From a virus, in IMG/VR virus record IMGVR_UViG_3300028920_000011, positions 1 through 46,885 of that record: 46,885 bases of DNA. One strand, 5' to 3'. Below the pieces are notes generated by a model that was not told the DNA's origin, did not search any database, and was given only the letters and a program-made list of their open reading frames with translations. Each line of letters begins with the position of its first letter. Within the stretch, counting starts at the first letter, position 1. Position numbers and translations under genes: made by a program. Below, in pieces: positions 1 to 46,885 of this stretch.

Positions 1-479
1 CCGCCGATGTCGGCGGGATTGACACGCGCGCCGTCGATTGTAGCCCAGCACAGCGTCGTTCCCCCGAGGTATGCCCCCCTGAGGTCTGCCACCGTGAGGT
101 TTGCCCCCGTGAGGTATGCCCCCGCGAGGTATGCCCCCCTAAGGTCTGCCCGCCCGAGGTTTGCCTGCGTGAGGTTTGCCCCCGCGAGGTTTGCCTGCGT
201 GAGGTTTGCCTGCGCGAGGTATGCCCCCGCGAGGTTTTCCCCCGCGAGGTCTGCCCCCTCGAGGTCTGCCCCCCCGAGGTTTGCCTGCGTGAGGTTTGCC
301 CCCGCGAGGTTTGCCCCCGCGAGGTTTGCCCGCCCGAGGTATGCCCCCGCGAGGTTTGCCCCCGCGAGGTTTGCCCGCCAGAGGTTTGCTTTGTGTGCCT
401 CGACGAACGCCACAAACGATTCAGCTTCGCCTTGGTGTAACGTGTTGCCGTCGCGGTCTAAAATCGTGTGAGTGCCCAT
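1..479 (-). CDS. Pentapeptide-repeat protein, copy A. This is the 5' part: the ORF runs off the window start and resumes at 46693..46885 if the contig is circular.
   Basis: ATG at 479-477 is preceded by an AAGGGAG RBS. Minus-strand translation is [38 protein letters not shown]..., followed by A(N/D)LxG pentapeptides. Joining through the 63-bp terminal overlap gives an in-frame 609-nt ORF (202 aa). Confidence 0.8.
   Translation of the reverse strand, partial: MGTHTILDRDGNTLHQGEAESFVAFVEAHKANLWRANLAGANLAGAYLGRANLAGANLAGANLTQANLGGADLEGADLAGENLAGAYLAQANLTQANLAGANLTQANLGRADLRGAYLAGAYLTGANLTVADLRGAYLGGTTLCWATIDGARVNPADIG
66..395. repeat. Tandem array of 22 x 15-nt units (plus-strand consensus gaggtttgcccccgc). 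These are the coding repeats of copy A.
   Basis: gaggt recurs every 15 nt from 66 to 395. The array has no stop codon in several frames on both strands, which explains the stacked ORFs in the track. Confidence 0.95.
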
Positions 480-515
480 TGCCGATCTCCCTTATCTCCG
501 GTATTAGTCAACCGT
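397..515. repeat. Dispersed direct repeat: N-terminal coding module plus leader of copy A, equal to 44448..44566 (copy D).
   Basis: Base-by-base comparison shows one mismatch (423 vs 44474) over 119 nt. The repeat covers the first ~27 codons, the RBS, the leader, and the stop codon of the upstream gene. Confidence 0.9.
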
Positions 516-923
516 CTCCCGCCGGCGCTGCTCGTCACGCCAACCCTCCTCGGTCAACGCACACAGGATATACCCTGGCCCGCCGATGTCGGCGGGATTG
601 ACACGCGCGCCGTCGATTGTAGCCCAGCACAGCGTCGTTCCCCCGAGGTATGCCCCCCTGAGGTCTGCCACCGTGAGGTTTGCCCCCGTGAGGTATGCCC
701 CCGTGAGGTCTGCCCCCGCGAGGTTTGCCCCCTCAAGGTCTGCCCCCTCGAGGTCTGCCCCCGCGAGGTTTGCCCCCTCAAGGTCTGCCCCCGCGAGGTT
801 TGCCCCCTCAAGGTTTGCCCGCCTGAGGTTTGCTTTGTGTGCCTCGACGAACGCCATAAACGATTCTGCGTCCCCTTGGTGTAGCGTGTTGCCTTCCCGA
901 TCAATAATCGTATAGGTCGCCAT
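504..923 (-). CDS. Pentapeptide-repeat protein, copy B.
   Basis: Track ORF 504..1001 is trimmed to ATG 923-921 ([33 protein letters not shown]...). That ATG overlaps the TGA of the upstream gene (ATGA). The body is ANLxGADLxG repeats. Confidence 0.85.
516..703. repeat. 188-nt direct repeat: C-terminal module of copy B, identical to 46759..46885 plus 64..124 (copy A).
   Basis: Position x in copy A equals x+579 in copy B. Identity holds from 516/46759 to 703/124, then breaks (c vs t). Confidence 0.9.
645..839. repeat. Tandem array of 13 x 15-nt units (coding repeats of copy B).
   Basis: gaggt/aaggt recurs with 15-nt periodicity from 645 to 839. Confidence 0.95.
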
Positions 924-2546: not shown

Positions 2547-2740
2547 CGTTCACCTCTTCGCCCATTGCACGATCGTCATGGTGCGCCACCTATGGTTGAC
2601 ATACACCCGCACGTATCGGGCTTTCTGTTTCACCGTAGTTGTTCTCAGCATCGCTCATCCCTCCATTCCGCGCGGCCCCACCCTGCTCCTTACCCGCGCA
2701 TGCCTCGGAGAACGCTCGCTGTGGGCGAGCAAAAATTACT

Positions 2741-2884
2741 TGGCGGCGGCGGGAATCGAACCCGCGTCAGTCCCCTTGGGGGACTCCAGCCCATGGCGCC
2801 AGCGAGATCACTGCTGACACACAAAGAGGGCCTACACGACTACGTGCGCATCGTGAGAGCGTGAACCAACCACGCCGCGCCGCC
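2741..2884 (-). ncRNA. tRNA-like RNA: acceptor stem, D-arm and T-arm, with a 72-nt insertion between the D-arm and an anticodon-like hairpin.
   Basis: Minus-strand reading, 5' part: GGCGGCG-CG-GCGT-GGTTGGTTC-ACGC. 3' part: AGTCC-CCCAAGG-GGACT-GAC-GCGGG-TTCGATT-CCCGC-CGCCGCC-A. There are seven Watson-Crick acceptor pairs, a canonical TTCGATT T-loop and a GG-containing D-loop. CCA is not encoded, and loop position 33 is C rather than U. Confidence 0.5.
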
Positions 2885-3038
2885 CAAAACACGTGCCCCG
2901 TGGCCGGGTTGGTTACCGGCAACCCATTTTCTCTGCCAGTCACTCATACCATGCGCGCTGGTGGCCGGGCGGGCTGATGGCGGCGCGAAGCCCGCGTGTT
3001 CGTCCACGCTGCACGGGGCACAAAACCTGATTCAACTG

Positions 3039-4336: not shown

Positions 4337-5204
4337 CTTCGCCTCCCTTCCGCGTTCTCACTCGTCGCCCGTACGGACAGAACGGCGCCGCGCTGCAATA
4401 CCGCAGGCACCGCGTGCACTCGCCAGGCCGTTCCTCGATGTCGCAAGGAAAGCCCTTGAGTGATGCGACGGCCTCAGCGGCGTCCCGCGAGCCACACAAG
4501 CCACCCGGCAAGGCCCGCTTGTTGCCTCGCTTCTTCACGGCCCAGACGGTGGGTTTCTCCCACCGTTCCGCGGGCGTGCACACTGGGATTCCGTCGACGG
4601 GCACGTTGTCAGCGGCCTGGTGTAGATGCACCCGCTCGCGGATGAAGTCACCAATCCGCTCCAATGTCCAGACCTCGACAGGCACGACGTGTACCTGGCA
4701 GTCCGGATAGCTCCGGTCCGTTTCCGCCTTGCGCATGATCCAGTCACGCAGGATAGCGACGATCTGCAGTGCTTTCGGCGTGAAGCCGTGCTGCATGTAG
4801 AGCCAGCGGTACATGTTGAGTTGCGCCGCCCACTCAGGCTTGACGCCGGACAGGAACGCCCACACCGACGTGACCTTGTAATCCGTGAGGGTGTCGTCGG
4901 GCTCGAGCAGGTCGGGCTTGCCACTGATCGTCCAGCCGAACACCTCGGCAACAAGCCGCTCCTCGGAGAGCCGGTCGGTGTGGTCTTGCCGCTCGATGAT
5001 GGCGTGCACACTCTGGCCGAGCAGCGACCACACGCGGTCGCTCGCGTCCTCGACGATGTCACCAGCGTGGCGCTTCTCGATCTGCACCATGAGCGGCGGC
5101 TTGATGAGTTGCGTCACGCTGATATCCCCCACGCGGCGGTAGGGGTCCCTGGTGAGAGCCTCATAGATGGGCTGGGGCAGTCCGTGTTTGTTGGTGTACG
5201 TCAT
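4329..5204 (-). CDS. PD-(D/E)XK (Cas4/RecB-like) recombination exonuclease.
   Basis: GKPDLL...TLTDYKVTS (D...D-x-K nuclease core) and a C-terminal Cys cluster [14 protein letters not shown]. There is an 8-nt overlap with erf. Confidence 0.7.
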
Positions 5205-5740
5205 TCCTTCCGCTCCGCGCGTTCGCGCAGCACGTCGGGCGCGCCGTCGCCGTCCTTCACAAACTTCGCCAACTCGTCGAGGATCTCCTCACGGATGGAG
5301 CTGAACGGCTCAGGTAACTCGCACGTCACGAAATTGAGGGCCTGCGAGTCGCCCCAACACCCGTCACGGCGTAGAAGAATCCAGCCGAGCGCCATTTCGC
5401 GCAACGTGTTACCGCGCGCCCAGTCGCGCAGCTTGGCAACGATCAGGTCGTGGGAGGTCCAGGACATGGTTATGCCGTACAGGTTCGCGCAGAACAGGTC
5501 CGCCCCGAACAGGTTCGCCCTGGACAGGTTCGCGCAGAACAGGTACGCCACGGACAGGTTCGCCCTGGACAGGTCCGCCCCGAACAGGTTCGCCCCGGAC
5601 AGGTTCGCCCCGGACAGGTTCGCCCCGGACAGGTCCGCATTGGACAGTCTCGCCTTTTCCATCTCCACTGCTTTCGCGAGCGATTCCGCCTCACGTCGAG
5701 CTATCACGTCGCCGCTTCGATTCCGTATCGTGTACAGCAT
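5201..5740 (-). CDS. Pentapeptide-repeat protein, copy C (divergent, with a distinct C-terminal domain).
   Basis: The track ORF begins [32 protein letters not shown], followed by [28 protein letters not shown]... A non-repeat C-terminal region of about 85 aa follows. Confidence 0.85.
5480..5659. repeat. Tandem array of about 12 x 15-nt units (consensus caggttcgccccgga).
   Basis: caggt recurs every 15 nt. The array is stop-free in several frames. Confidence 0.9.
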
Positions 5741-11061: not shown

Positions 11062-11709
11062 ATGCCGTCCTCGAAAGACAAGCCCGACAAACCGCAGAGC
11101 GCGGCAGATGCCATTGAGAAAGAAACCATCGCCGAGTTGATAGCGAAGCATAGGGCCGGCAAGAAGCTGGGCCGTGGTGACGTTGCGCGGATTCGGCAGT
11201 ATGAACGCGAACGGCGCGAGGAACAACTCGACGCGCATTTGATGGCCCTACCGCGTGTGACGCTGGCGCGGTTGTTGGACACCAACGAGCGGATGATAAA
11301 CAAGTGGCTCGATGTGGGGATGCCGCGCAACACCGACAAGGGCCGGACATACAACTGGTTCAACGTGTTGCCGTGGATCAAGGCGCGGTGGTTGGGCAAG
11401 AACATTGACGAGGATGGGCCACCGCAAACCAAGAAGGGCGCCGACGCTGACGAGCGCTATCGGTTGGCGAAAGCAAAACTAGCAGAACACCAGCTAGCGG
11501 AGAAGGAGGGGCAGATAGTACAGGTCGAATTACTTAGGCGGCAATGGGAAAGCGGGATTGATGTTGTCAGGCGCGCCGGCGAGAACCTTGGGCGGCGGTT
11601 CGGGCCCGAGGCGCAGGACATGTTCAACGAGGCACTTGAAGAGGGCGCGCGTGTTGCGCAGGAGGCTATTGGCACAGATGACGATGATGGCGGAACCGAT
11701 AGCGCATAA
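11062..11709 (+). CDS. terS: Terminase small subunit (Nu1-like HTH).
   Basis: VTLARLLDTNERMINKWLDVGMPR is an HTH pattern followed by a basic coiled coil. The gene is directly upstream of, and overlaps, the large terminase. Confidence 0.55.
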   Translation: MPSSKDKPDKPQSAADAIEKETIAELIAKHRAGKKLGRGDVARIRQYERERREEQLDAHLMALPRVTLARLLDTNERMINKWLDVGMPRNTDKGRTYNWFNVLPWIKARWLGKNIDEDGPPQTKKGADADERYRLAKAKLAEHQLAEKEGQIVQVELLRRQWESGIDVVRRAGENLGRRFGPEAQDMFNEALEEGARVAQEAIGTDDDDGGTDSA

Positions 11710-13678
11710 TGCGGATATAGCGCCCGAGTGGTTTCTGCGTGCTATGTCTACCCGCGTGCGCACCATGCGGGAGTTTGCCGAGCAGGAAATCATCCTGCCC
11801 AATGGCGAATACGAGGGGTTGCGGTTTCGGTGTGACAGGCAACCCTACTCGGGTCTGTTCTTCGATGCGCACGACAGCGGCAACTGGACGCGGTTTGTGG
11901 TGACAGGCCCGACACAGAGCGGCAAGACATTGTGCGCGTTTGTTATTCCTATACTGTATTACCTGTTCGAGATGCGCGAGACGGTGGTGTGTGGGTTGCC
12001 TAACGAGGATATCCGAAACGACAAATGGGAATTAGACCTGTTACCCGTTATCGAACGGACACAATACCGTAAGTTGCTGCCCGTTGAGGGCAGCGGGTCT
12101 AGGCGCGGTCGTGTTGGTGCGTCCATTCGTTTTAGGAACGGCGCCACACTGCGATTTATGACGGCAGGTGGCGGCGACAAACAGCGGGCCAGTTTTACAA
12201 CCCGTATTGTGGTGATTACCGAAACAGACGGATTCGACGCGCCAGGCGCAACGTCGAGGGAGGCCGATAAGGTCACGCAGATCATCAACCGCACGGGCGC
12301 GTTTGACCGTAGCGAGCGGGCGCGCATCTTCCTGGAGTGTACCGTAACGGTCGAAGAGGGCCGCACATGGCAGGAATACAACGCCGGCACGGCGAGCCGG
12401 ATAGCATGCCCGTGTCCTGCATGTGGCGATTATGTGACGCCCGGCAGGGAACACCTGCATGGATGGCAGGATGCCGCGTCGGAAGAGGCCGCGCGCCGAG
12501 AATCCTACTGGGTGTGCCCGTCGTGTGGCGTGGTGTTGAGCGAAGACGAACGGACCGAGATGTGTGCGGCTAGCGCACTGGCACACAAAGGCCAGGAGAT
12601 AGACAGCAATGGCGTCTTGCATGGCGACAATCCGGATACTACTGCGCTGGGCTTCCGATGGTCCGCGTTCGACAACCAGTTTGCCAGTGCCCGGTCTATC
12701 GGTGCCCGCGAATGGCGGGCTGCGCGGGCGATTCAGGAGGAAAATGCAGAGAAAGAAATGCGTCAGTTTGTATGGGCATTGCCGTACGAACCGCCACGCG
12801 ACGATCTCAGCGGAGTCACCATCGAAGCCATTCTGAGCCGTACGGTGGACATCCCGCGCGGTCATATCCCGAAAGACACGGAATACATTACCATGGGGTG
12901 CGATATAGGCAAGCGGCTATTACACTGGGTTGTGTTGGCTTGGCGACATGACGCCAGTCCGCACACGGTCGAATATGCTGTGCAGGATGTTGCCGTGGTG
13001 TCGCTGGGCGAGGAGCGCGGGCTATTGGCTGCATTGCAACAGATTGCCGACATGGCCGCAGAGGGCTGGCCCATCCACAACACCGAAATAGACGACCACG
13101 CCATGGTAGACTCCATATGGGTTGATGCGCGGTACCAGACAGATACCATATGCCAGTTTGTGCGCGAGACGGGCCCCCCGTGGCATCCCGTACGGGGCTG
13201 GGGCGAAAGCCAGGACATGGCCGGCGCATATCGACCGCCCGGCGCGACGAACAAAAGGGTAGTGCGTGTAGGGCAGGGGTATCATTGGACACGAGACCGT
13301 GCGCGCGGCGTGCGGTTTGCCGACGTGAACGCCGACCAGTGGAAGACGTTCCTGCATGCGCGACTCACTACCCCGCCCAACCATCCGGGCGCCATGACGT
13401 TGTACCATGTGGGCCACGTGAACGAGCACATGACGCTAGCAAAACACTGGACATCTGAGCGGCAGATTGAGGAATTCAGGGCAGGCAAAGGCAACGTAAC
13501 ACTATGGGAACGTGTACACAGGCGCAACCACTACTTTGATGCGGCCTATATGGCGTGCGCGGCGGCCCACAGCCTCGGCGTGCGGCTGATAGGCGACAAG
13601 CCCAAGAAGGTTGTGGTGCCAGAAACCGAAGCCAAGAAGCCCGACAAATCGGGCGGCTGGACAATCGGGAGGGGTTAG
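11678..13678 (+). CDS. terL: Terminase large subunit, GpA (lambda-like) family.
   Basis: Walker A VVTGPTQSGKT and Zn ribbon CPCPACG...CPSCG, with GpA-like overall length. The start is set at ATG 11678, downstream of GGAGG. The track ORF starts at 11558, inside terS. Confidence 0.9.
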   Translation: MTMMAEPIAHNADIAPEWFLRAMSTRVRTMREFAEQEIILPNGEYEGLRFRCDRQPYSGLFFDAHDSGNWTRFVVTGPTQSGKTLCAFVIPILYYLFEMRETVVCGLPNEDIRNDKWELDLLPVIERTQYRKLLPVEGSGSRRGRVGASIRFRNGATLRFMTAGGGDKQRASFTTRIVVITETDGFDAPGATSREADKVTQIINRTGAFDRSERARIFLECTVTVEEGRTWQEYNAGTASRIACPCPACGDYVTPGREHLHGWQDAASEEAARRESYWVCPSCGVVLSEDERTEMCAASALAHKGQEIDSNGVLHGDNPDTTALGFRWSAFDNQFASARSIGAREWRAARAIQEENAEKEMRQFVWALPYEPPRDDLSGVTIEAILSRTVDIPRGHIPKDTEYITMGCDIGKRLLHWVVLAWRHDASPHTVEYAVQDVAVVSLGEERGLLAALQQIADMAAEGWPIHNTEIDDHAMVDSIWVDARYQTDTICQFVRETGPPWHPVRGWGESQDMAGAYRPPGATNKRVVRVGQGYHWTRDRARGVRFADVNADQWKTFLHARLTTPPNHPGAMTLYHVGHVNEHMTLAKHWTSERQIEEFRAGKGNVTLWERVHRRNHYFDAAYMACAAAHSLGVRLIGDKPKKVVVPETEAKKPDKSGGWTIGRG

Positions 13679-41088: not shown

Positions 41089-41833
41089 TATTTGCCATCC
41101 TTTCGCGTGCGGCAAAGTACTCGCGCAGACAGTTGCCGCAATATCGGCATGCCGTTGACCCGCGCTCGCCTTCGATGTGCCCACACGAGTAGACGAGTAC
41201 ATTGTGACGATAGTGCCACATAATATCATGGAACGCACCTGTCGAGATGGCCCAGTAGTCGTTTGACGTGCGTTTGCGGTGCAGATATCTGCACCGATGC
41301 GTCGGCGGTATCGACCCGCGCGAATGGTACGCCATGAACGTCAAGACAACGGGCACGCCGCGGCTAGTGTAATAATCAATAGCCGGATCGACTACCCCGT
41401 CGATGTTCCATGTATTTGTCCTGACCCGCACAAACATCAATTGCGGCGGTGCCGATTCGAGCAATCCCAGGCTGTACCATGCACGATCTGTCATGTCGCC
41501 TGGATTGACCGTCCACACTACTGGCGCGGGCAGGCCGGGAAACAACTCTGGTGCGTTAGCGCACGTGTTGTAGAACCTGAGAGGATACTGTTTAGTGGCA
41601 GACAACACCGTCTCGGCGTCCAGTAGACTGTCGTTGCCGTCGTTTACACGCACCACGCGATGGCCCACCTGCTCCAATGTCGGCATATTGGGCGTGTTTT
41701 CGCCCAGCGGTTCCAGGTACGACCGGCCAGACTGAAAAAAACAGTCCGCGCACGCATGGGCGCACCTGCCGTGTTGCGGGATACAACATAAAATACCGCT
41801 TCCTTTTGTTTTGGGATTCTCGATGTAACCCAT
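41081..41833 (-). CDS. Cys-rich putative Fe-S (radical-SAM-like CX3CX2C) enzyme.
   Basis: GAAGGAGG RBS. GRCAHACADCFF (C-x3-C-x2-C) lies near the N-terminus and a CRYCGNC cluster lies near the C-terminus. No clear GGE SAM motif was seen. Confidence 0.4.
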   Translation of the reverse strand: MGYIENPKTKGSGILCCIPQHGRCAHACADCFFQSGRSYLEPLGENTPNMPTLEQVGHRVVRVNDGNDSLLDAETVLSATKQYPLRFYNTCANAPELFPGLPAPVVWTVNPGDMTDRAWYSLGLLESAPPQLMFVRVRTNTWNIDGVVDPAIDYYTSRGVPVVLTFMAYHSRGSIPPTHRCRYLHRKRTSNDYWAISTGAFHDIMWHYRHNVLVYSCGHIEGERGSTACRYCGNCLREYFAARERMANND

Positions 41834-42783
41834 CACGTCACCTCCTTCACTGCGTCAAGTTCTTGCTGGCCGTAGTTGTCGCGCTCGCGTACCGCGCGCC
41901 GCAGGTTCTTGACCGCCACGCGGAAGTAGGATTCCTTCAGTTCGATGCCGGTGAATTTGCGCCCGCGTTTCAACGCGCCATACCCTTCGCTGCCGATGCC
42001 CATGAACGGAGATAACACCCTGTCGCCGGGTGCGCTCCACAGTTGCACGCACCGGTCTATCACATCCAGTTGCAACGGGCACACGTGTTTCTCGTCCTCG
42101 TCCTCGCGCGCGTCGCGATAGTTGTCCAACACGTTCGTCTCGCGGATGCCGTTGGGGTATTTGTCCGATTGCCGGTGCCACACGGGCGACGCCCACTCGA
42201 TCCAATCCTCGGCGGTTATCCACCCATCGAGATTGTCATACCGCTCGCTCACGCCGGCCTTGATCGGGATTGGGTTGTCGCCGGGCTTACGGAACTGCAC
42301 CACGTAGTCGGCGAGCGCCATGTGCATGTTGGCGCTATCTTTTGCCAGCGTCTTGAATAGAAGCCCTTGGTCTTTCGTGCGAATCGCCTTAACCTGCGGG
42401 TCTTTCTCGATGCACACCTCGCCGTAATAGACAAATCCTGCATCCTCCATGGCGGCAATTATCGCGCCCCGAAAGTCCTTGACGCCAATGTAGCCGTCAA
42501 GGTATTGGAACGCGACGCCCTGGCATAGGTGCACACAACACGACCGTCCCGGCATCAACGCGCGCAGCAACGACGGGATCAAGAACCGATAGTGCTCTAT
42601 CATCTCGTCTTGGCTCTTGACGTTGCCCATGTCTTCTGCCATGTCGGTGTACGCGTACATGCCGGGAAACGGCGGGGAGAACAGTTCCAGTCCGATAGAC
42701 TCATCGGGCACGCGGTCCATCAAGACAACGCTGTCTCCGCAGTACGCCGTGAAATCGCCGGTGATTACTTCGGTATCGTTCAT
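41833..42783 (-). CDS. Beta-class DNA methyltransferase (N4-cytosine or N6-adenine).
   Basis: Motif IV FSPPFPGMY precedes motif I LSPFMGIGSEG. The start at 42783 is ATGA-coupled to the helicase gene and follows GGAGGAGG. Confidence 0.85.
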   Translation of the reverse strand: MNDTEVITGDFTAYCGDSVVLMDRVPDESIGLELFSPPFPGMYAYTDMAEDMGNVKSQDEMIEHYRFLIPSLLRALMPGRSCCVHLCQGVAFQYLDGYIGVKDFRGAIIAAMEDAGFVYYGEVCIEKDPQVKAIRTKDQGLLFKTLAKDSANMHMALADYVVQFRKPGDNPIPIKAGVSERYDNLDGWITAEDWIEWASPVWHRQSDKYPNGIRETNVLDNYRDAREDEDEKHVCPLQLDVIDRCVQLWSAPGDRVLSPFMGIGSEGYGALKRGRKFTGIELKESYFRVAVKNLRRAVRERDNYGQQELDAVKEVT

Positions 42784-44072
42784 GTGACTTGCCTCCTCCA
42801 TTCGATGATGTTAGCCATCATGCGTGCCGCCTCGTTCTCTTTCCGTTGCACGTTCGCAAGCACCGCGCCCTCGGTATCTGCGATAATGAGATGCCTGTGT
42901 ACGTCCTTGGTTTGCCCAAAGCGCCAACACCGGCGCGTGGCCTGGTAGTACTCCTCGAATGAATCGCCCAACCCCACAAATGCCATGTTAGGGCAATGCT
43001 GCCAATTCATCCCGAATCCGGCTATGCGCGGCTTGGTCACGAGCACGCGGTATTTGCCGTCGGCGAATCCTAGCATGCGTTCCGATTTTTGTTGATTGGT
43101 ATCGCTGCCCTTCACTTCTATGGCGTCCGGTATGGCCTTCGTCAACGCGGCACTCTCGGCATTCAGCTTGCACCAACACAGCCACGGCTCCGTGCTGGCG
43201 TTAACCATCGCCGCGGCCATGTCTGCACGTTCTTCAACGCTTTCCCGACGTGCTTCGAGTCGCTCTTGCATCGTGTTCGCGACCACGGGGAAAAGATAGT
43301 CCTGGCGCAGATGACCATCGACGGTGTGCTCGTACGTGTGCAGGTCCGGCAGCACAAACCTGCCATCGTCATACCCCATGTCGGACGGTTTGCGCACGGC
43401 CCATGCCCACGAGCACATCCAGCACCAGAAATCTCGCTGTCCGTGATGTTTGAGACGCGTTTGCCCTCCAGCCTTGCAGTCTTGTACAAAAAATCTCCCG
43501 AGGATCTCTTGTGCTGTTAATGTGCCCAAAAATTCCGCGTGGTTGATAATTTCTATCAGGTCGTTTGGCGCCGGCGTCGCCGTGCACGCCAGCCGAAAAT
43601 GCAGTTTAGACGCGAAGTCCGTGACGTACTTGCGAAACTTCCCGCTGTAACTCTTGAGGATACTGGACTCGTCCAACACCAGCCCGCCGAGGTTGTCGGG
43701 CTCGAAGTGCTGGAGCATCTCATAGTTGGTGATATGCACACCGTTATCGCGCATGTCGGTGTGGTCGCGACACACGTGCACGGGCACGTCAAACTTCTCG
43801 CCCTCGCGCTGCGTCTGCGTACTCACGGCCAACGGCGCAACAACCAACACGGGCTTGTGTGTGTGCTCACACACCTCACGCGCCCACAGAAGTTGCATCG
43901 GCGTTTTGCCAAGCCCACAATCTGCGAACACCGCCGCACGCCCCTTACGCAATGCCCATTCAGTGATGTCGGCCTGAAAATCGTACAGGGCCGACCCGCG
44001 CAACGTGGCCGTCACTCCATCATCCGGCACGACCATCTTCTTGGACGCGAGGAACCGCCCATACGCGCCCAT
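42780..44072 (-). CDS. SNF2-family helicase/ATPase.
   Basis: ADCGLGKT (motif I), LVLDESSILK (motif II) and QATRRCWRFGQ (motif VI). The start at 44072 is ATGA-coupled to pentapeptide copy D. Confidence 0.85.
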   Translation of the reverse strand: MGAYGRFLASKKMVVPDDGVTATLRGSALYDFQADITEWALRKGRAAVFADCGLGKTPMQLLWAREVCEHTHKPVLVVAPLAVSTQTQREGEKFDVPVHVCRDHTDMRDNGVHITNYEMLQHFEPDNLGGLVLDESSILKSYSGKFRKYVTDFASKLHFRLACTATPAPNDLIEIINHAEFLGTLTAQEILGRFFVQDCKAGGQTRLKHHGQRDFWCWMCSWAWAVRKPSDMGYDDGRFVLPDLHTYEHTVDGHLRQDYLFPVVANTMQERLEARRESVEERADMAAAMVNASTEPWLCWCKLNAESAALTKAIPDAIEVKGSDTNQQKSERMLGFADGKYRVLVTKPRIAGFGMNWQHCPNMAFVGLGDSFEEYYQATRRCWRFGQTKDVHRHLIIADTEGAVLANVQRKENEAARMMANIIEWRRQVT

Positions 44073-44530
44073 CACACCGCCCTTCCCTGGCGGATTACGT
44101 CCCACTCGTCATTGGTCAACGCACACAGGATATGACCCGGCCCGCCGATGTCGGATGGATTGACACGCGCGCCGTCGATTGTAGCCCGGCACAGCGTGGT
44201 GCTAATGAGGTTTGCCCCCCCGAGGTATGCCCCTGCGAGGTTTGCCCCCTCAAGGTATGCTCCCACGAGGTATGCCCCCGTGAGGTTTGCCCCCGCGAGG
44301 TTTGCCCCCGTGAGCTTTGCCCCCCCGAGGTCTGCCCCCGTGAGGTTTGCCCCCGTGGGGTTTGCCCCCGTGGGGTCTGCCCCCGTGAGGTCTGCCCCCA
44401 CGAGGTCTGCCCCCACGAGGTATGCCCGCCCGAGGTTTGCTTTTCTTGCCTCGACGAACGCCACAAACGATTCGGCTTCGCCTTGGTGTAACGTGTTGCC
44501 GTCGCGGTCTAAAATCGTGTGAGTGCCCAT
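44072..44530 (-). CDS. Pentapeptide-repeat protein, copy D.
   Basis: The track ORF begins MGTHTILDRDGNTLHQGEAESFVAFVEARKANL, followed by ADLxGA repeats. The C-terminal [29 protein letters not shown] is related to copies A and B. Confidence 0.85.
   Translation of the reverse strand: MGTHTILDRDGNTLHQGEAESFVAFVEARKANLGRAYLVGADLVGADLTGADPTGANPTGANLTGADLGGAKLTGANLAGANLTGAYLVGAYLEGANLAGAYLGGANLISTTLCRATIDGARVNPSDIGGPGHILCALTNDEWDVIRQGRAV
44207..44446. repeat. Tandem array of 16 x 15-nt units (coding repeats of copy D).
   Basis: gaggt/ggggt recurs every 15 nt from 44207 to 44446. Confidence 0.9.
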
Positions 44531-44558
44531 TGCCGATCTCCCTTATCTCCGGTATTAG

Positions 44559-44912
44559 TCAACCGTTGAACGCATCCACCACAATAGCTATTGCACGTTC
44601 AAGCCCATCGATGATGCCATCACGGTTGTTTATCTGGCGCGCCTGTTGGTTTACTTGGCGCCCCTCGGAATCGAGTTGACGGCGCAAATCGGCCACCGTT
44701 GCGCGCAGTTTCTCTGCGCTTTCGCTGTCCCGTTCCGCCGTCTCAAGTCGGGTCGCCTGCTCGTCGTTGACCCGCCTGAGATATGCCGTCTGACTTGCCA
44801 GTGGCAACACGTACCCCAGCAATTGGTCTAGCTCGTCGGCGTTTAGCCGCGCGCCCTGTTCGCGTTCGTTGGCTGTACACAGCCGTTTCATTAGCCCATT
44901 ATCGATATCCAT
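44559..44912 (-). CDS. Hypothetical coiled-coil protein.
   Basis: The track ORF is trimmed to ATG 44912 (MDIDNGLMKRL...), which follows AAAGGACAGG. The longer form would start at 45029. Confidence 0.5.
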   Translation of the reverse strand: MDIDNGLMKRLCTANEREQGARLNADELDQLLGYVLPLASQTAYLRRVNDEQATRLETAERDSESAEKLRATVADLRRQLDSEGRQVNQQARQINNRDGIIDGLERAIAIVVDAFNG

Positions 44913-45029: not shown

Positions 45030-46412
45030 TCAAAACGGTACTCCCTCGTCTGCGTTACCATTATCGTCAAACAGTTCTTCAGATTCAAATCCGTCCTTCC
45101 GTGGGTGTTGGATGCTGGTAATCACATATGATGGTTTGTACCAGCGCAACGTTACGCTCCGTGTGGGCCCGTCGCGTTGTTTGGCGATGTGGCAACGCAC
45201 CTCGATGTCTGTCTCGTTCTCCTGCGCAGTGTTCCAAAGCATCAGGATTATGTCCGCGTCGTTCTCGATGCGCGACGTTTCGCGTAGATGCCAGAGTTGC
45301 GGGCCGTCGTTGCCAAAATCCGCCTTGACAAACTGGGACAGTAGCACAATGGGGCGTGCTATCCTGTCGCGCAACGCGCCTATCTCACTGATGATGTGGT
45401 CATACCGCTCCTTGCCAGAGTAAAACCGCTTGGTAGTCTGCACGGCCTGGAAATAATCGAACGCAACAAAGCTCGTCTCGGGGTGTCGTTGCACGTGGGC
45501 CTGTACGCTGAATTTGAGCTCTTCGATGGTGCGGTAGCCGTCCTGGATGAAAATCGGCACGTCACGAAGGCGGGGCAACGCACGCTGCAATAGCGTGGTT
45601 CGCCTACCCCAGTCGGCATGCGCGTCAACAAACTCATCCAGCGGGCACACAATACGATGTAGGCGCCGCATGATGCGCGCGCGCTTTTCTTCCAAGCTAC
45701 ACAGCAACGGCGGGCCGTATGCCATGCCGATGTTGTGTGCCATGTTGAGTAGGAACGTGCTTTTGCCATGCGATGATTTCGCGGCCACCACCATGAGCAT
45801 GTCGTTTTCCAGCCCGTTCGGTATCCACCGGTCCAAGTCCCAAATGCCCAGCCGGTACCCTTGCACGCGGTCGAGCGCCGTCTTTTCAAGGTACCGCTCG
45901 AACGCCTCCGTGTGCTCGCCTACTAGCTCGGGCACATACGCCGCCTCTCTGCCCTGCTGGATGCCAACGCCCTCAACCTCACGTATTAGGTTCAACGCGA
46001 TATCGTCGGCCTTGGATTGCCACACCATGGCCGTCTGTTTGCTCAGTATCGTGAGCAATTTACGGCGGTGCGCCCGGTCCAACACGGTCGCCGCGTACCG
46101 TTCGACATGGTGCGACGTCATCGTGGCGCCGGTCAATTGCGCAAGGTACGATGCGCCGCCAGCACGTTCCAACGTGCCGGCCTGTTGCATGTGCGACATC
46201 AGGATGGTGGCATCCACCGCGTTGTCTTGCTCAGCAATTTCGCACATGGCGCGGTAGATGTCGCGGTGCGCCTCCGAGTAGAAATCTTCGGCGGTTAGGT
46301 CGGACGCCACGACGGCCAACGCCTGCGGGTTGAGCAGAATACTACCTAGCACGGCGCGTTCCGCGTCAACGTCCTGCGGCGGTTCGCGGTTAAGCACCGT
46401 CGTGGTCCTCAC
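45030..46412 (-). CDS. dnaB: Replicative DNA helicase DnaB.
   Basis: DAERAVLGSILLNPQAL...EDFYSEAHRDIYRAM (DnaB N-domain), Walker A AAKSSHGKSTFLLN, and the later ILLSQ and RDG segments. Confidence 0.9.
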   Translation of the reverse strand: MRTTTVLNREPPQDVDAERAVLGSILLNPQALAVVASDLTAEDFYSEAHRDIYRAMCEIAEQDNAVDATILMSHMQQAGTLERAGGASYLAQLTGATMTSHHVERYAATVLDRAHRRKLLTILSKQTAMVWQSKADDIALNLIREVEGVGIQQGREAAYVPELVGEHTEAFERYLEKTALDRVQGYRLGIWDLDRWIPNGLENDMLMVVAAKSSHGKSTFLLNMAHNIGMAYGPPLLCSLEEKRARIMRRLHRIVCPLDEFVDAHADWGRRTTLLQRALPRLRDVPIFIQDGYRTIEELKFSVQAHVQRHPETSFVAFDYFQAVQTTKRFYSGKERYDHIISEIGALRDRIARPIVLLSQFVKADFGNDGPQLWHLRETSRIENDADIILMLWNTAQENETDIEVRCHIAKQRDGPTRSVTLRWYKPSYVITSIQHPRKDGFESEELFDDNGNADEGVPF

Positions 46413-46527
46413 CGCAAATCACGATGATGCCATACCATACCAGCACGACATACATTGTAACCATCCCTAGCACAATCGTGCCGCTCACACCAATTGCCAC
46501 GCCAAGCCAGAAGTCAATCGTTGGCAT
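46390..46527 (-). CDS. Small membrane protein (45 aa).
   Basis: The track ORF is trimmed to MPTIDFWLGVAIGVSGTIVLGMVTMYVVLVWYGIIVICG..., which follows GGGAGAAC. Confidence 0.45.
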   Translation of the reverse strand: MPTIDFWLGVAIGVSGTIVLGMVTMYVVLVWYGIIVICGEDHDGA

Positions 46528-46696
46528 TTGTCTGTTCTCCCTTCTCGGCCAGCAGCGCCGACACGCACTCATGCAGTTGCCAGACTGCGTCGGCTACGGT
46601 TTCGTATCCGAAATTTTCTGCGTCGTTGTCCAGCCAATCGGCAACCACCTTTTGCGCAGTTCGGATGCGCGTCATGTCTTTTGTGGATAGATTCAT
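46514..46696 (-). CDS. Hypothetical protein (60 aa).
   Basis: The track ORF has ATGA coupling to the end of pentapeptide copy A. Confidence 0.5.
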   Translation of the reverse strand: MNLSTKDMTRIRTAQKVVADWLDNDAENFGYETVADAVWQLHECVSALLAEKGEQTNAND

Positions 46697-46885
46697 TCTT
46701 TGTCCCCTTCCGCCCGCGCGGTTGCGGCGTCGATCTTGTCTGCCAGCGACCCGCCTTCCTCCCGCCGGCGCTGCTCGTCACGCCAACCCTCCTCGGTCAA
46801 CGCACACAGGATATACCCTGGCCCGCCGATGTCGGCGGGATTGACACGCGCGCCGTCGATTGTAGCCCAGCACAGCGTCGTTCCC
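46693..46885 (-). CDS. Pentapeptide-repeat protein copy A, 3' (C-terminal) part.
   Basis: The minus frame reads ...[35 protein letters not shown] with its stop at 46693..46695. The ORF enters the window from beyond 46885 and continues from 1..479 through the terminal overlap. Confidence 0.75.
   Translation of the reverse strand, partial: GTTLCWATIDGARVNPADIGGPGYILCALTEEGWRDEQRRREEGGSLADKIDAATARAEGDKE
46823..46885. repeat. Terminal overlap: identical to 1..63 (and to 580..642).
   Basis: Direct comparison of the window ends shows 63/63 identity. Confidence 0.95.

Follow-up and report, generated by a model that had tools for sequence, protein, structure and literature searches.

A four-member family of pentapeptide-repeat genes in a phage early operon, with signs of recombination between paralogs and within 15-nt arrays

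Introduction

Why would a phage carry, head to tail, two genes built of the same 15-nt unit in different numbers? The question is raised by the two ends of a viral genome in IMG/VR (record IMGVR_UViG_3300028920_000011, positions 1 to 46,885; the whole of this 46,885-nt stretch is called the window). The two genes, A and B, encode pentapeptide-repeat proteins. A reading of the letters alone (the original prediction) had seen in them the products of recent unequal recombination or slippage, a length-variable locus of the contingency type and, as a hypothesis, DNA mimics of different length. The best explanation overall, which we regard as probable, is that A and B form a real tandem pair within a recombining four-member family of beta-helix proteins encoded in the early operon of this phage. 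The gene class is already known and is common in phages; worth following here are the recombination dynamics, the pattern of silent and surface positions, and an unnamed subfamily defined by its tail module.

Results

Positions 1..63 of the window repeat 46823..46885 exactly. This stretch is an assembly overlap, and closing the sequence through it gives a circle of 46822 nt. The pentapeptide-repeat family has four members in this genome, named A, B, C, and D:

504..923, minus strand: gene B, 139 aa by open reading frame and translation, with its ATG at 923 and its stop at 504; it consists of a 30-aa N-terminal cap, 13 units, and a conserved C-terminal module, and ends with ETVD and the stop codon
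46693..46885 joined to 64..479, minus strand: gene A, 202 aa
64..479, minus strand: 5' part of gene A, with the ATG at 479, the N-terminal cap, the 22-unit array, and the start of the C-terminal module
46693..46885, minus strand: 3' part of gene A, with the remainder of the C-terminal module and a unique 22-aa tail, EEGGSLADKIDAATARAEGDKE
46693..46695, minus strand: stop codon of gene A, overlapping the start of the next gene (ATGA)
44072..44530, minus strand: gene D, a close paralog of 152 aa with 16 units (array 44201..44440)
5201..5740, minus strand: gene C, a distant fourth paralog of 179 aa with 11 units (array 5474..5638)

Gene D has the same head as A and a C-terminal module of the same type; gene C uses other codons (GCG/CTG) and has another C-terminal domain than A, B, and D. 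Two long exact repeats, R1 and R2, are the only ones on the circle, and both involve gene A:

516..703: R1 in B, 188 nt exact, covering the last 4.3 units and the C-terminal module up to RRRE
46759..46885 plus 64..124: R1 in A, 188 nt exact
424..515: R2 at A, 92 nt exact, covering the first 56 coding nt and 36 nt upstream including the ribosome-binding site
44475..44566: R2 at D (R2b), 92 nt exact, including the last 8 nt (AAC GGT TGA) of the upstream 117-aa gene

The R2 copy at A abuts the R1 copy of B directly, between 515 and 516, and the last four codons and the stop of B (ETVD-stop) come from R2. At the D locus this same stretch is the end of the 117-aa gene (AAC GGT TGA) together with the ribosome-binding site of D; in the gene calls of contig L001, the end of the 117-aa gene is at 2341 and the start of D at 2370. 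Gene A is thus a mosaic of a D-type head, an array of its own, and a B-type tail. The out-of-place fragment of the 117-aa gene within R2 gives the direction of copying and shows that a D-type locus was the source of the head and ribosome-binding site of A. The edges of both tracts are sharp, whereas a comparison of the A and B heads shows 15 differences in 90 nt and a silent-site divergence (pS) of 0.44. Because sharp-edged exact tracts stand beside such divergence, the sequences point to recent conversion-like events and not to one recent whole-gene duplication.

These results bear on several claims of the original prediction. The shared block of 188 nt (516..703 equal to 46759..46885 plus 64..124) is exact as it had been described, the product lengths of 202 and 139 aa follow from translation, and the idea of recent recombination is borne out by the sharp-edged tracts of 188 and 92 nt. 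The description of A as B plus 9 units plus a tail holds as arithmetic (63 = 45 + 18 aa) and fails as a description of the genes, whose heads differ as given above and whose arrays differ outside the shared block.

The repeat bodies of A and B are regular at the level of DNA:

60..389, minus strand: array of A, 22 in-frame 15-nt units with the template GCA-NAC-CTC-NNG-NGG (from Tandem Repeats Finder (TRF), the unit listing, and per-position variability)
639..833, minus strand: array of B, 13 units with a 45-nt higher-order period (from the TRF rows at periods 15 and 45)

TRF placed the array of A at 61..389 (21.9 copies, 83% matches, 0% indels) and that of B at 640..833 (12.9 copies, 84% matches), and the encoded units read A-(N/D/Y)-L-x-G. 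The counts of 22 and 13 units agree with those first proposed at 66..395 and 645..839, which are the same arrays with the phase shifted by 6 nt. The units were less alike than the "near-perfect" of that proposal: their mean pairwise identity was 0.82 and 16 of the 22 units in A were distinct, so that the periodicity alone is perfect. No exact repeat inside any array exceeded 43 nt. A test for block duplication was significant for B (P ~0.002-0.01) and marginal for A and C.

What does not vary within the units is as telling as what does. The alanine at the first position is encoded by GCA in all 47 non-redundant units of A, B, and D (51 of 51 when the shared block contributes its four units to A as well as to B), leucine by CTC in 44 of 49 cases, and glycine by GGG in 44 of 47. 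The genome as a whole uses these codons at 20%, 14%, and 20%, respectively, and against this background the uniformity is well beyond chance. It is due neither to protein constraint nor to codon bias, because the fixed codons are in the minority in the genome and gene C uses GCG and CTG instead. Third codon positions in the units of A, B, and D are nearly invariant, and the variation falls at unit positions 4, 10, 11, and 13. The ratio of replacement to silent differences (pN/pS) among units, a comparison of non-independent paralogous sequences, was 5.3 for A, 1.5 for B, 2.1 for D, and 3.5 for C, and reached 2.2-8.5 on the three outward-facing codons; it was ~0.2 between the heads of A and B. 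Among 91 arrays of other phage contigs, the median pS was 0.073, the median pN 0.214, and the ratio exceeded 1 in 70%. This pattern fits concerted evolution of the units combined with diversification of the exposed residues.

A diversity-generating retroelement was also considered as a source of the variable positions and was rejected. The pairs of R1 and of R2 are exact and are not adenine-specific variants of each other, and the variable unit positions show G/A, G/C, and four-base mixes. No Pfam match to a reverse transcriptase was found among the genes called over ~24 kb of the window.

A single co-directional early operon of replication and recombination genes contains all four. From C onward it runs through the exonuclease gene, Erf, small genes, a RuvC-like resolvase gene, a 194-aa gene, and a 78-aa gene to B and A, and it continues with two small genes, DnaB, the 117-aa gene, D, an SNF2-like gene, and an N6/N4 DNA methyltransferase gene. 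Gene C therefore lies upstream of the exonuclease and Erf genes, and D is flanked by the DnaB and 117-aa genes on one side and by the SNF2-like and methyltransferase genes on the other. Start and stop codons overlap within the operon; the start of B overlaps the stop codon of the 78-aa gene before it. A ribosome-binding site of its own precedes A, and 24 nt separate the stop codon of B from the ATG of A. No promoter-like or terminator-like site was found between genes on the minus strand, and Rfam and tRNA scans of the window gave no match. The placing of A and B among replication and recombination genes, as proposed from the letters, is in line with this layout.

All four proteins matched the pentapeptide-repeat family PF00805 with E-values of 1.7e-35 (A), 3.6e-25 (B), 8.6e-43 (D), and 3.1e-20 (C), corresponding to 120.6, 87.6, 143.9, and 71.8 bits against a gathering threshold of 20.2. 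The AlphaFold2 model of A had a predicted local distance difference test score (pLDDT) of 79.7 overall and of 88-96 across residues 1-100, and consisted of an N-terminal beta-hairpin and helix cap followed by a regular short strand every 5 residues. The arrays are thus predicted to form a right-handed four-sided beta-helix with four units per coil. Foldseek aligned the model to solved pentapeptide helices with a probability of 1.00 and low global TM-scores of 0.2-0.4; the hits comprised the Np275/276 designs (E 3.5e-9), HetL, Rfr, QnrB1, MfpA, and AlbG, and many phage or viral models annotated "pentapeptide repeat" were matched as well. The best local structural match was Np275, with a root-mean-square deviation of 0.6 A over 93 columns. 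Both the pentapeptide-repeat identity and the beta-helix expected in the original prediction were therefore recovered, the first by the PF00805 search and the second as a model. The C-terminal module scored 50-67 in pLDDT, low even with a 35-sequence alignment.

Gene D has an irregular stretch. At 44351..44380 (residues 51-60) two successive units carry proline in place of the inward-facing central leucine (ADPTG and ANPTG, with CTC changed to CCC), and the pLDDT of this 10-residue block dips to 60. The helix may be kinked or decaying at this point.

After the array, A, B, and D share a module of the form TLCxATIDGAxVxPxDIGGPGxILCALTxxxW, which is absent from C and has no Pfam model. When the full length of B was used to look for homologs, generic repeat matches overwhelmed the results; a word-index search with the tail found 2 proteins, and an exact look-up of protein B returned no record. 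An exhaustive search with the tail among 1.84 billion proteins identified a family of 51 representative proteins with an E-value of at most 1e-3. In this family the tail is strongly conserved, the heads vary, and the arrays range from 2 to >20 units. The consensus of the unnamed subfamily is TLCxATIDGAxVxPxDIGGPGHILCALTxxEW, and the near-invariant columns are C, I, D, G, A, G, G, P, G, I, L, A, L, T, E, and R. The tail module also occurs on ten IMG/VR phage loci. One of them, contig L099, carries a pair of adjacent genes whose tails are nearly identical (71 nt exact) and whose extreme C-termini differ, an architecture like that of A and B. Since relatives have as few as 2 units, the conserved part of these proteins is the tail and not a helix of DNA-like length.

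What might such proteins do? The four are small, cytoplasmic, and acidic, and we infer that they are early-expressed binders of host or phage proteins. Mimicry of DNA directed against gyrase or against restriction or defence enzymes is one possibility and not the default reading. The specific form put forward in the original prediction, DNA mimics of the Qnr or MfpA type and of graded length that bind host gyrase or restriction and defence nucleases, seems unlikely to us. Several features speak for it: the fold class is shared with QnrB1, MfpA, and AlbG, all four proteins have an isoelectric point (pI) of 4.4-5.4, the array of B carries a net charge of -6 over 65 aa, and the diversifying surface residues fit an arms race. 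The position in an early operon points the same way, with D two genes upstream of the DNA methyltransferase gene and the SNF2-like gene between them, and small gyrase inhibitors are known from phages (PMC10886550). Against this, the array of A is nearly neutral (-1 over 110 aa), with -3 for D and -1 for C. The scores of 20-60 bits were far from the curated cut-offs: for Qnr (NCBIfam NF033086, cut-off 240 bits), A scored 38.8, B 23.9, D 21.4, and C 23.5, and for MfpA (NCBIfam NF000349, cut-off 360 bits), the values were 60.4, 36.2, 30.0, and 20.3. PADLOC gave no match. The helices are also short, with 13-22 units making ~3-6 coils, whereas MfpA and Qnr have ~8-9 coils per monomer, and the smallest arrays in the tail family number 2 units. 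Pentapeptide helices serve as plain protein-binding scaffolds too (HetL, PipB2, and NleL). In the one relevant published test that was found, McbG and QnrB did not replace Ocr in blocking BREX (PMC7261183).

The original prediction had allowed for an assembly artefact of a single gene, and the tandem pair could be doubted since both ends of the window lie inside R1. We therefore compared the window with two other public assemblies of the same phage, the MEGAHIT contig ERZ27252253:k141_2532397 (46322 nt) and the Logan assembly (k=31) of run SRR8554435. The MEGAHIT contig was 100% identical to the window over 12814 + 11171 nt compared (23,985 bases), save for one 15-nt gap. It starts 141 nt inside R1 from the side of the unique tail of A and ends 141 nt inside R1 from the side of the array of B, so that its length is that of the circle minus 78..562 minus 15 nt. 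The Logan contig L087 runs from a point 30 nt inside the 3' border of R1 to one 30 nt inside the 5' border of R2b, and these again are predicted branch points. Breaks k bases into the repeat from both sides are expected when a graph at k=141 meets a 188-nt repeat that has two contexts on each side.

An assembly artefact, with one real gene at the locus and a false pair and false unit counts produced by strain variants or repeat confusion, is therefore improbable. It would draw on the fact that the "circular junction" of the window is a 63-nt overlap within the 188-nt repeat, that the exact repeats of 188 and 92 nt are longer than common k-mer sizes, and that the MEGAHIT contig lacks 78..562 and would close by a 94-nt overlap into a single chimeric gene. 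Several observations are at odds with it. The junction between R1 and R2, GGCGGGAG joined to ACGGTTGA, has no homology across it, so it must occur in reads, and no assembler could invent it. The breaks lie exactly k or k-1 inside the repeat borders (141 at k=141, 30 at k=31), which is the signature of a true repeat with two contexts. The head of A, the array of A, and the junction make a closed loop that is possible solely in the order R1, junction, A, R1. Exact repeats within the arrays are at most 43 nt long, so unit counts are determinate at k >43. Genes A and B have separate ribosome-binding sites and different heads, and contig L099, from an unrelated phage, has the same architecture. The window ending inside R1 and the other assemblies breaking at the repeat borders therefore support a true pair, and we consider it very likely that the A-B tandem is real.

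An alternative path through the graph would leave the B-type gene on its own here and place a tandem of A and D at 44 kb; it was ruled out because D, R2, and the region upstream of D form one contiguous sequence at k=141.

Closing the MEGAHIT contig by its 94-nt overlap would lose gene A entirely, and circularity calls from terminal repeats are unsafe at this locus. More generally, the repeats break short-read assemblies exactly here, and a "circular" contig that is closed within the 188-nt repeat can gain or lose an entire gene unnoticed.

The same comparison revealed a change in unit number. The sole difference in the 23,985 compared bases lies in gene C, where the window has two units and the MEGAHIT contig one (179 and 174 aa, respectively):

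5594..5623, minus strand: two identical adjacent units in C, each GCGAACCTGTCCGGG, encoding ANLSG

Steps of one or several units also separate other phages. Among IMG/VR contigs that were fetched with B as the query, L012 and L033 are separated over 2.5 kb by 3 mismatches and a single 15-nt array indel, and a gap of 135 nt separates L038 from L075. The genomes of phages L and ST64T, which are >99.9% identical, disagree at two sites, and one of these is a 15-bp deletion of one pentapeptide in the early-left gene orf232 (PMC8022706), and Caulobacter phages GB2A and RW differ by a 375-bp deletion in a pentapeptide gene (PMC11053796). Other arrays did not change: six groups of contigs from different samples with identical or near-identical flanks had invariant arrays (L049/52/54, L060/61, L065/67, L045/48, L056/57, and L066/70), and the 13-unit array of B is the same in the window and the MEGAHIT contig. 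The arrays are thus indel hot spots at the evolutionary scale and are not demonstrably hypervariable.

The claim of length-variable arrays accordingly stands for the 15-nt steps among phages and gives way where many near-identical phage contigs are invariant. The further step to a true contingency locus, in which unit number changes at high frequency within populations as a form of bet-hedging, is hard to reconcile with the data, and we think it improbable as well. The single unit that separates otherwise identical assemblies over 24 kb, the single- and multi-unit indels between near-identical phages, the multi-unit block duplications in B, and the phage's own recombination system of Erf and exonuclease all agree with it. 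A unit of 15 nt is five codons long, however, and the variants of 15, 135, or 375 nt are all in frame, so that expression is left unswitched and there is no on/off switch. The units are ~82% identical and share exact repeats of at most 43 nt, and the six invariant groups and the unchanged array of B also speak against it.

The Logan contig L083 (SRR8554435) begins at window position 5580, 4 nt short of the C tandem at which the assemblies disagree. No exact window repeat of at least 30 nt accounts for this break, which may reflect heterogeneity at the level of reads.

Close relatives of the phage were found neither in INPHARED (array matches only) nor in IMG/VR (DnaB 40% identical) or JGI metagenome contigs (40%), and the distant relatives with a 40% identical DnaB had no pentapeptide gene near DnaB. 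Because none was found there, a comparison of orthologous loci was impossible. Tandem sets of paralogs with shared heads or tails do occur elsewhere, on L016 (5 genes), L031 (5 genes), L012/L033/L043, L095, and L099. On unrelated IMG/VR phage contigs, runs of up to 5 adjacent pentapeptide genes with a shared head and differing unit counts lie at:

L016, 1..2073
L031, 7929..10498
L043, 7744..8396

Contig L043 looks like a recombinant of two genes that are seen in L012 and L033.

That the repeats act at the DNA level, as origin iterons or protein-binding arrays with incidental reading frames, can be set aside as extremely improbable: direct repeats do lie beside DnaB and recombination genes, but the long frames are intact, in pentapeptide register, and backed by strong Pfam scores, the variation follows the codons (surface codons vary at their first and second positions, and third positions are fixed), which rules out origin iterons, the four separate arrays have a GC content of ~65-68% and no AT-rich flank, and the same repeats are coding in every case in hundreds of phages.

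Discussion

The four-member family evolves by homologous recombination on two scales. Between paralogs, it has left the conversion-like tracts that made A a mosaic, with its head and ribosome-binding site from the D locus and its tail shared with B. Within arrays, unequal exchange or slippage adds or removes whole units and multi-unit blocks, and this keeps the silent sites uniform while the outward-facing residues differ between units. The phage exonuclease and Erf annealing protein could catalyze such unit exchanges. Helix length and surface may set the binding partner, and the conserved tail may carry a common function, for example the pairing of two copies or the docking of a partner.

Several points weigh against this explanation. 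The within-array pN/pS is a pattern and does not formally test for selection. An assembler error, instead of a polymorphism, could underlie the one-unit difference in C. The C-terminal module is modelled at low confidence, and its role is a guess. The tandem pair is seen in assemblies only, the window and the two others may stem from one sample and would then not be fully independent, and a sub-population without the A loop could exist. In the literature searched, no experiment assigns a function to any phage pentapeptide-repeat protein.

A broader and more speculative view, on the doubtful side in our judgement, is that the family belongs to a widespread and fast-evolving system of phage binders. 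Recombination between units and between paralogs would keep changing the length of the helices and the combination of heads with tails, and residues at the surface would diversify under selection. Each phage would then carry a few helices of different size and charge that neutralize host DNA-handling or defence proteins, and in the tail-module subfamily the invariant GGPGHILCALT motif would dock or pair. If this were true, the system would be a counter-defence analogue of repeat-based variable binders. The present genome is a compact case, with four paralogs in one early operon, clear conversion tracts, and unit-sized indels between otherwise identical assemblies. If the pattern of uniform silent and variable exposed positions, also found in ~90 other phage arrays, reflects selection, these genes are good candidates for host takeover or counter-defence and are cheaply testable.

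The closest known systems are phage genes. The P22-like early-left gene orf232 of ST64T and L and orf19 of ST104 are early-operon genes of 15-nt pentapeptide units, as here; orf232 shows a one-unit indel of 15 bp between phages (PMC8022706) and matches the array of C at the DNA level. Unlike the family described here, these are single genes per genome as reported, with a different head and tail, and no mosaic set of paralogs has been described for them. Annotated pentapeptide-repeat proteins with array matches at the DNA level are likewise found in RW and GB2A, Caulobacter phages of the Riverwalk cluster, and in JessA, RapA, and BL94. The 375 bp that separate GB2A from RW correspond to a deletion of 25 units (PMC11053796), akin to unit loss here. 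The Riverwalk-cluster phages, JessA, RapA, and BL94 are different phage types, and no shared head or tail has been shown.

Among cellular proteins, the topoisomerase-acting Qnr, MfpA, AlbG, and McbG have PF00805 repeats, a right-handed four-sided beta-helix, and an overall acidic character in common with the window proteins. The latter fall below the curated thresholds, lack the Qnr loops, are much shorter, and have a different C-terminal module in place of the dimerization helix. Np275 and Np276 of Nostoc punctiforme (PDB 2j8i and 2j8k) resemble the arrays in their highly regular A(D/N)LxG units. They are two pentapeptide-repeat proteins solved as a fusion, and they are encoded by neighbouring genes; unlike the window proteins, they are cellular (cyanobacterial), have no phage context, and carry another cap and tail. 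The anti-restriction DNA mimics Ocr and ArdA are also acidic, early-expressed proteins of mobile elements. Their folds are unrelated and their mimicry was shown experimentally, whereas in the present proteins it is a hypothesis. Finally, bacterial contingency loci share with the arrays a unit number that shifts by slippage or unequal recombination, but classic examples consist of perfect 1-8 nt repeats that switch a frame or promoter, and the units here are 15 nt long, imperfect, and always in frame.

Other features of the genome

Directly downstream of D, 41833..44105 on the minus strand encodes an SNF2-related helicase-like protein (430 aa) and an N6/N4 DNA methyltransferase (316 aa). Self-methylation by this methyltransferase would be a conventional anti-restriction device in the same operon. 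The largest gene-free gap of the early operon, ~490 nt at 2547..3038 between a 103-aa and a 107-aa gene, contains no tRNA and no Rfam family, and its inverted repeats are weak (2864..2914).

On the plus strand, ~11558..13678 encodes a large terminase of the lambda GpA type (PF05876 and PF20454 on the corresponding MEGAHIT gene). Given this type of terminase, the virion DNA is probably linear with cohesive ends and the circle an assembly form.

Two tiny genes of 60 and 45 aa lie between A and DnaB (46412..46696, minus strand). Neither has a Pfam match; the product of the second, the 45-aa gene, is hydrophobic by sequence and may span a membrane.

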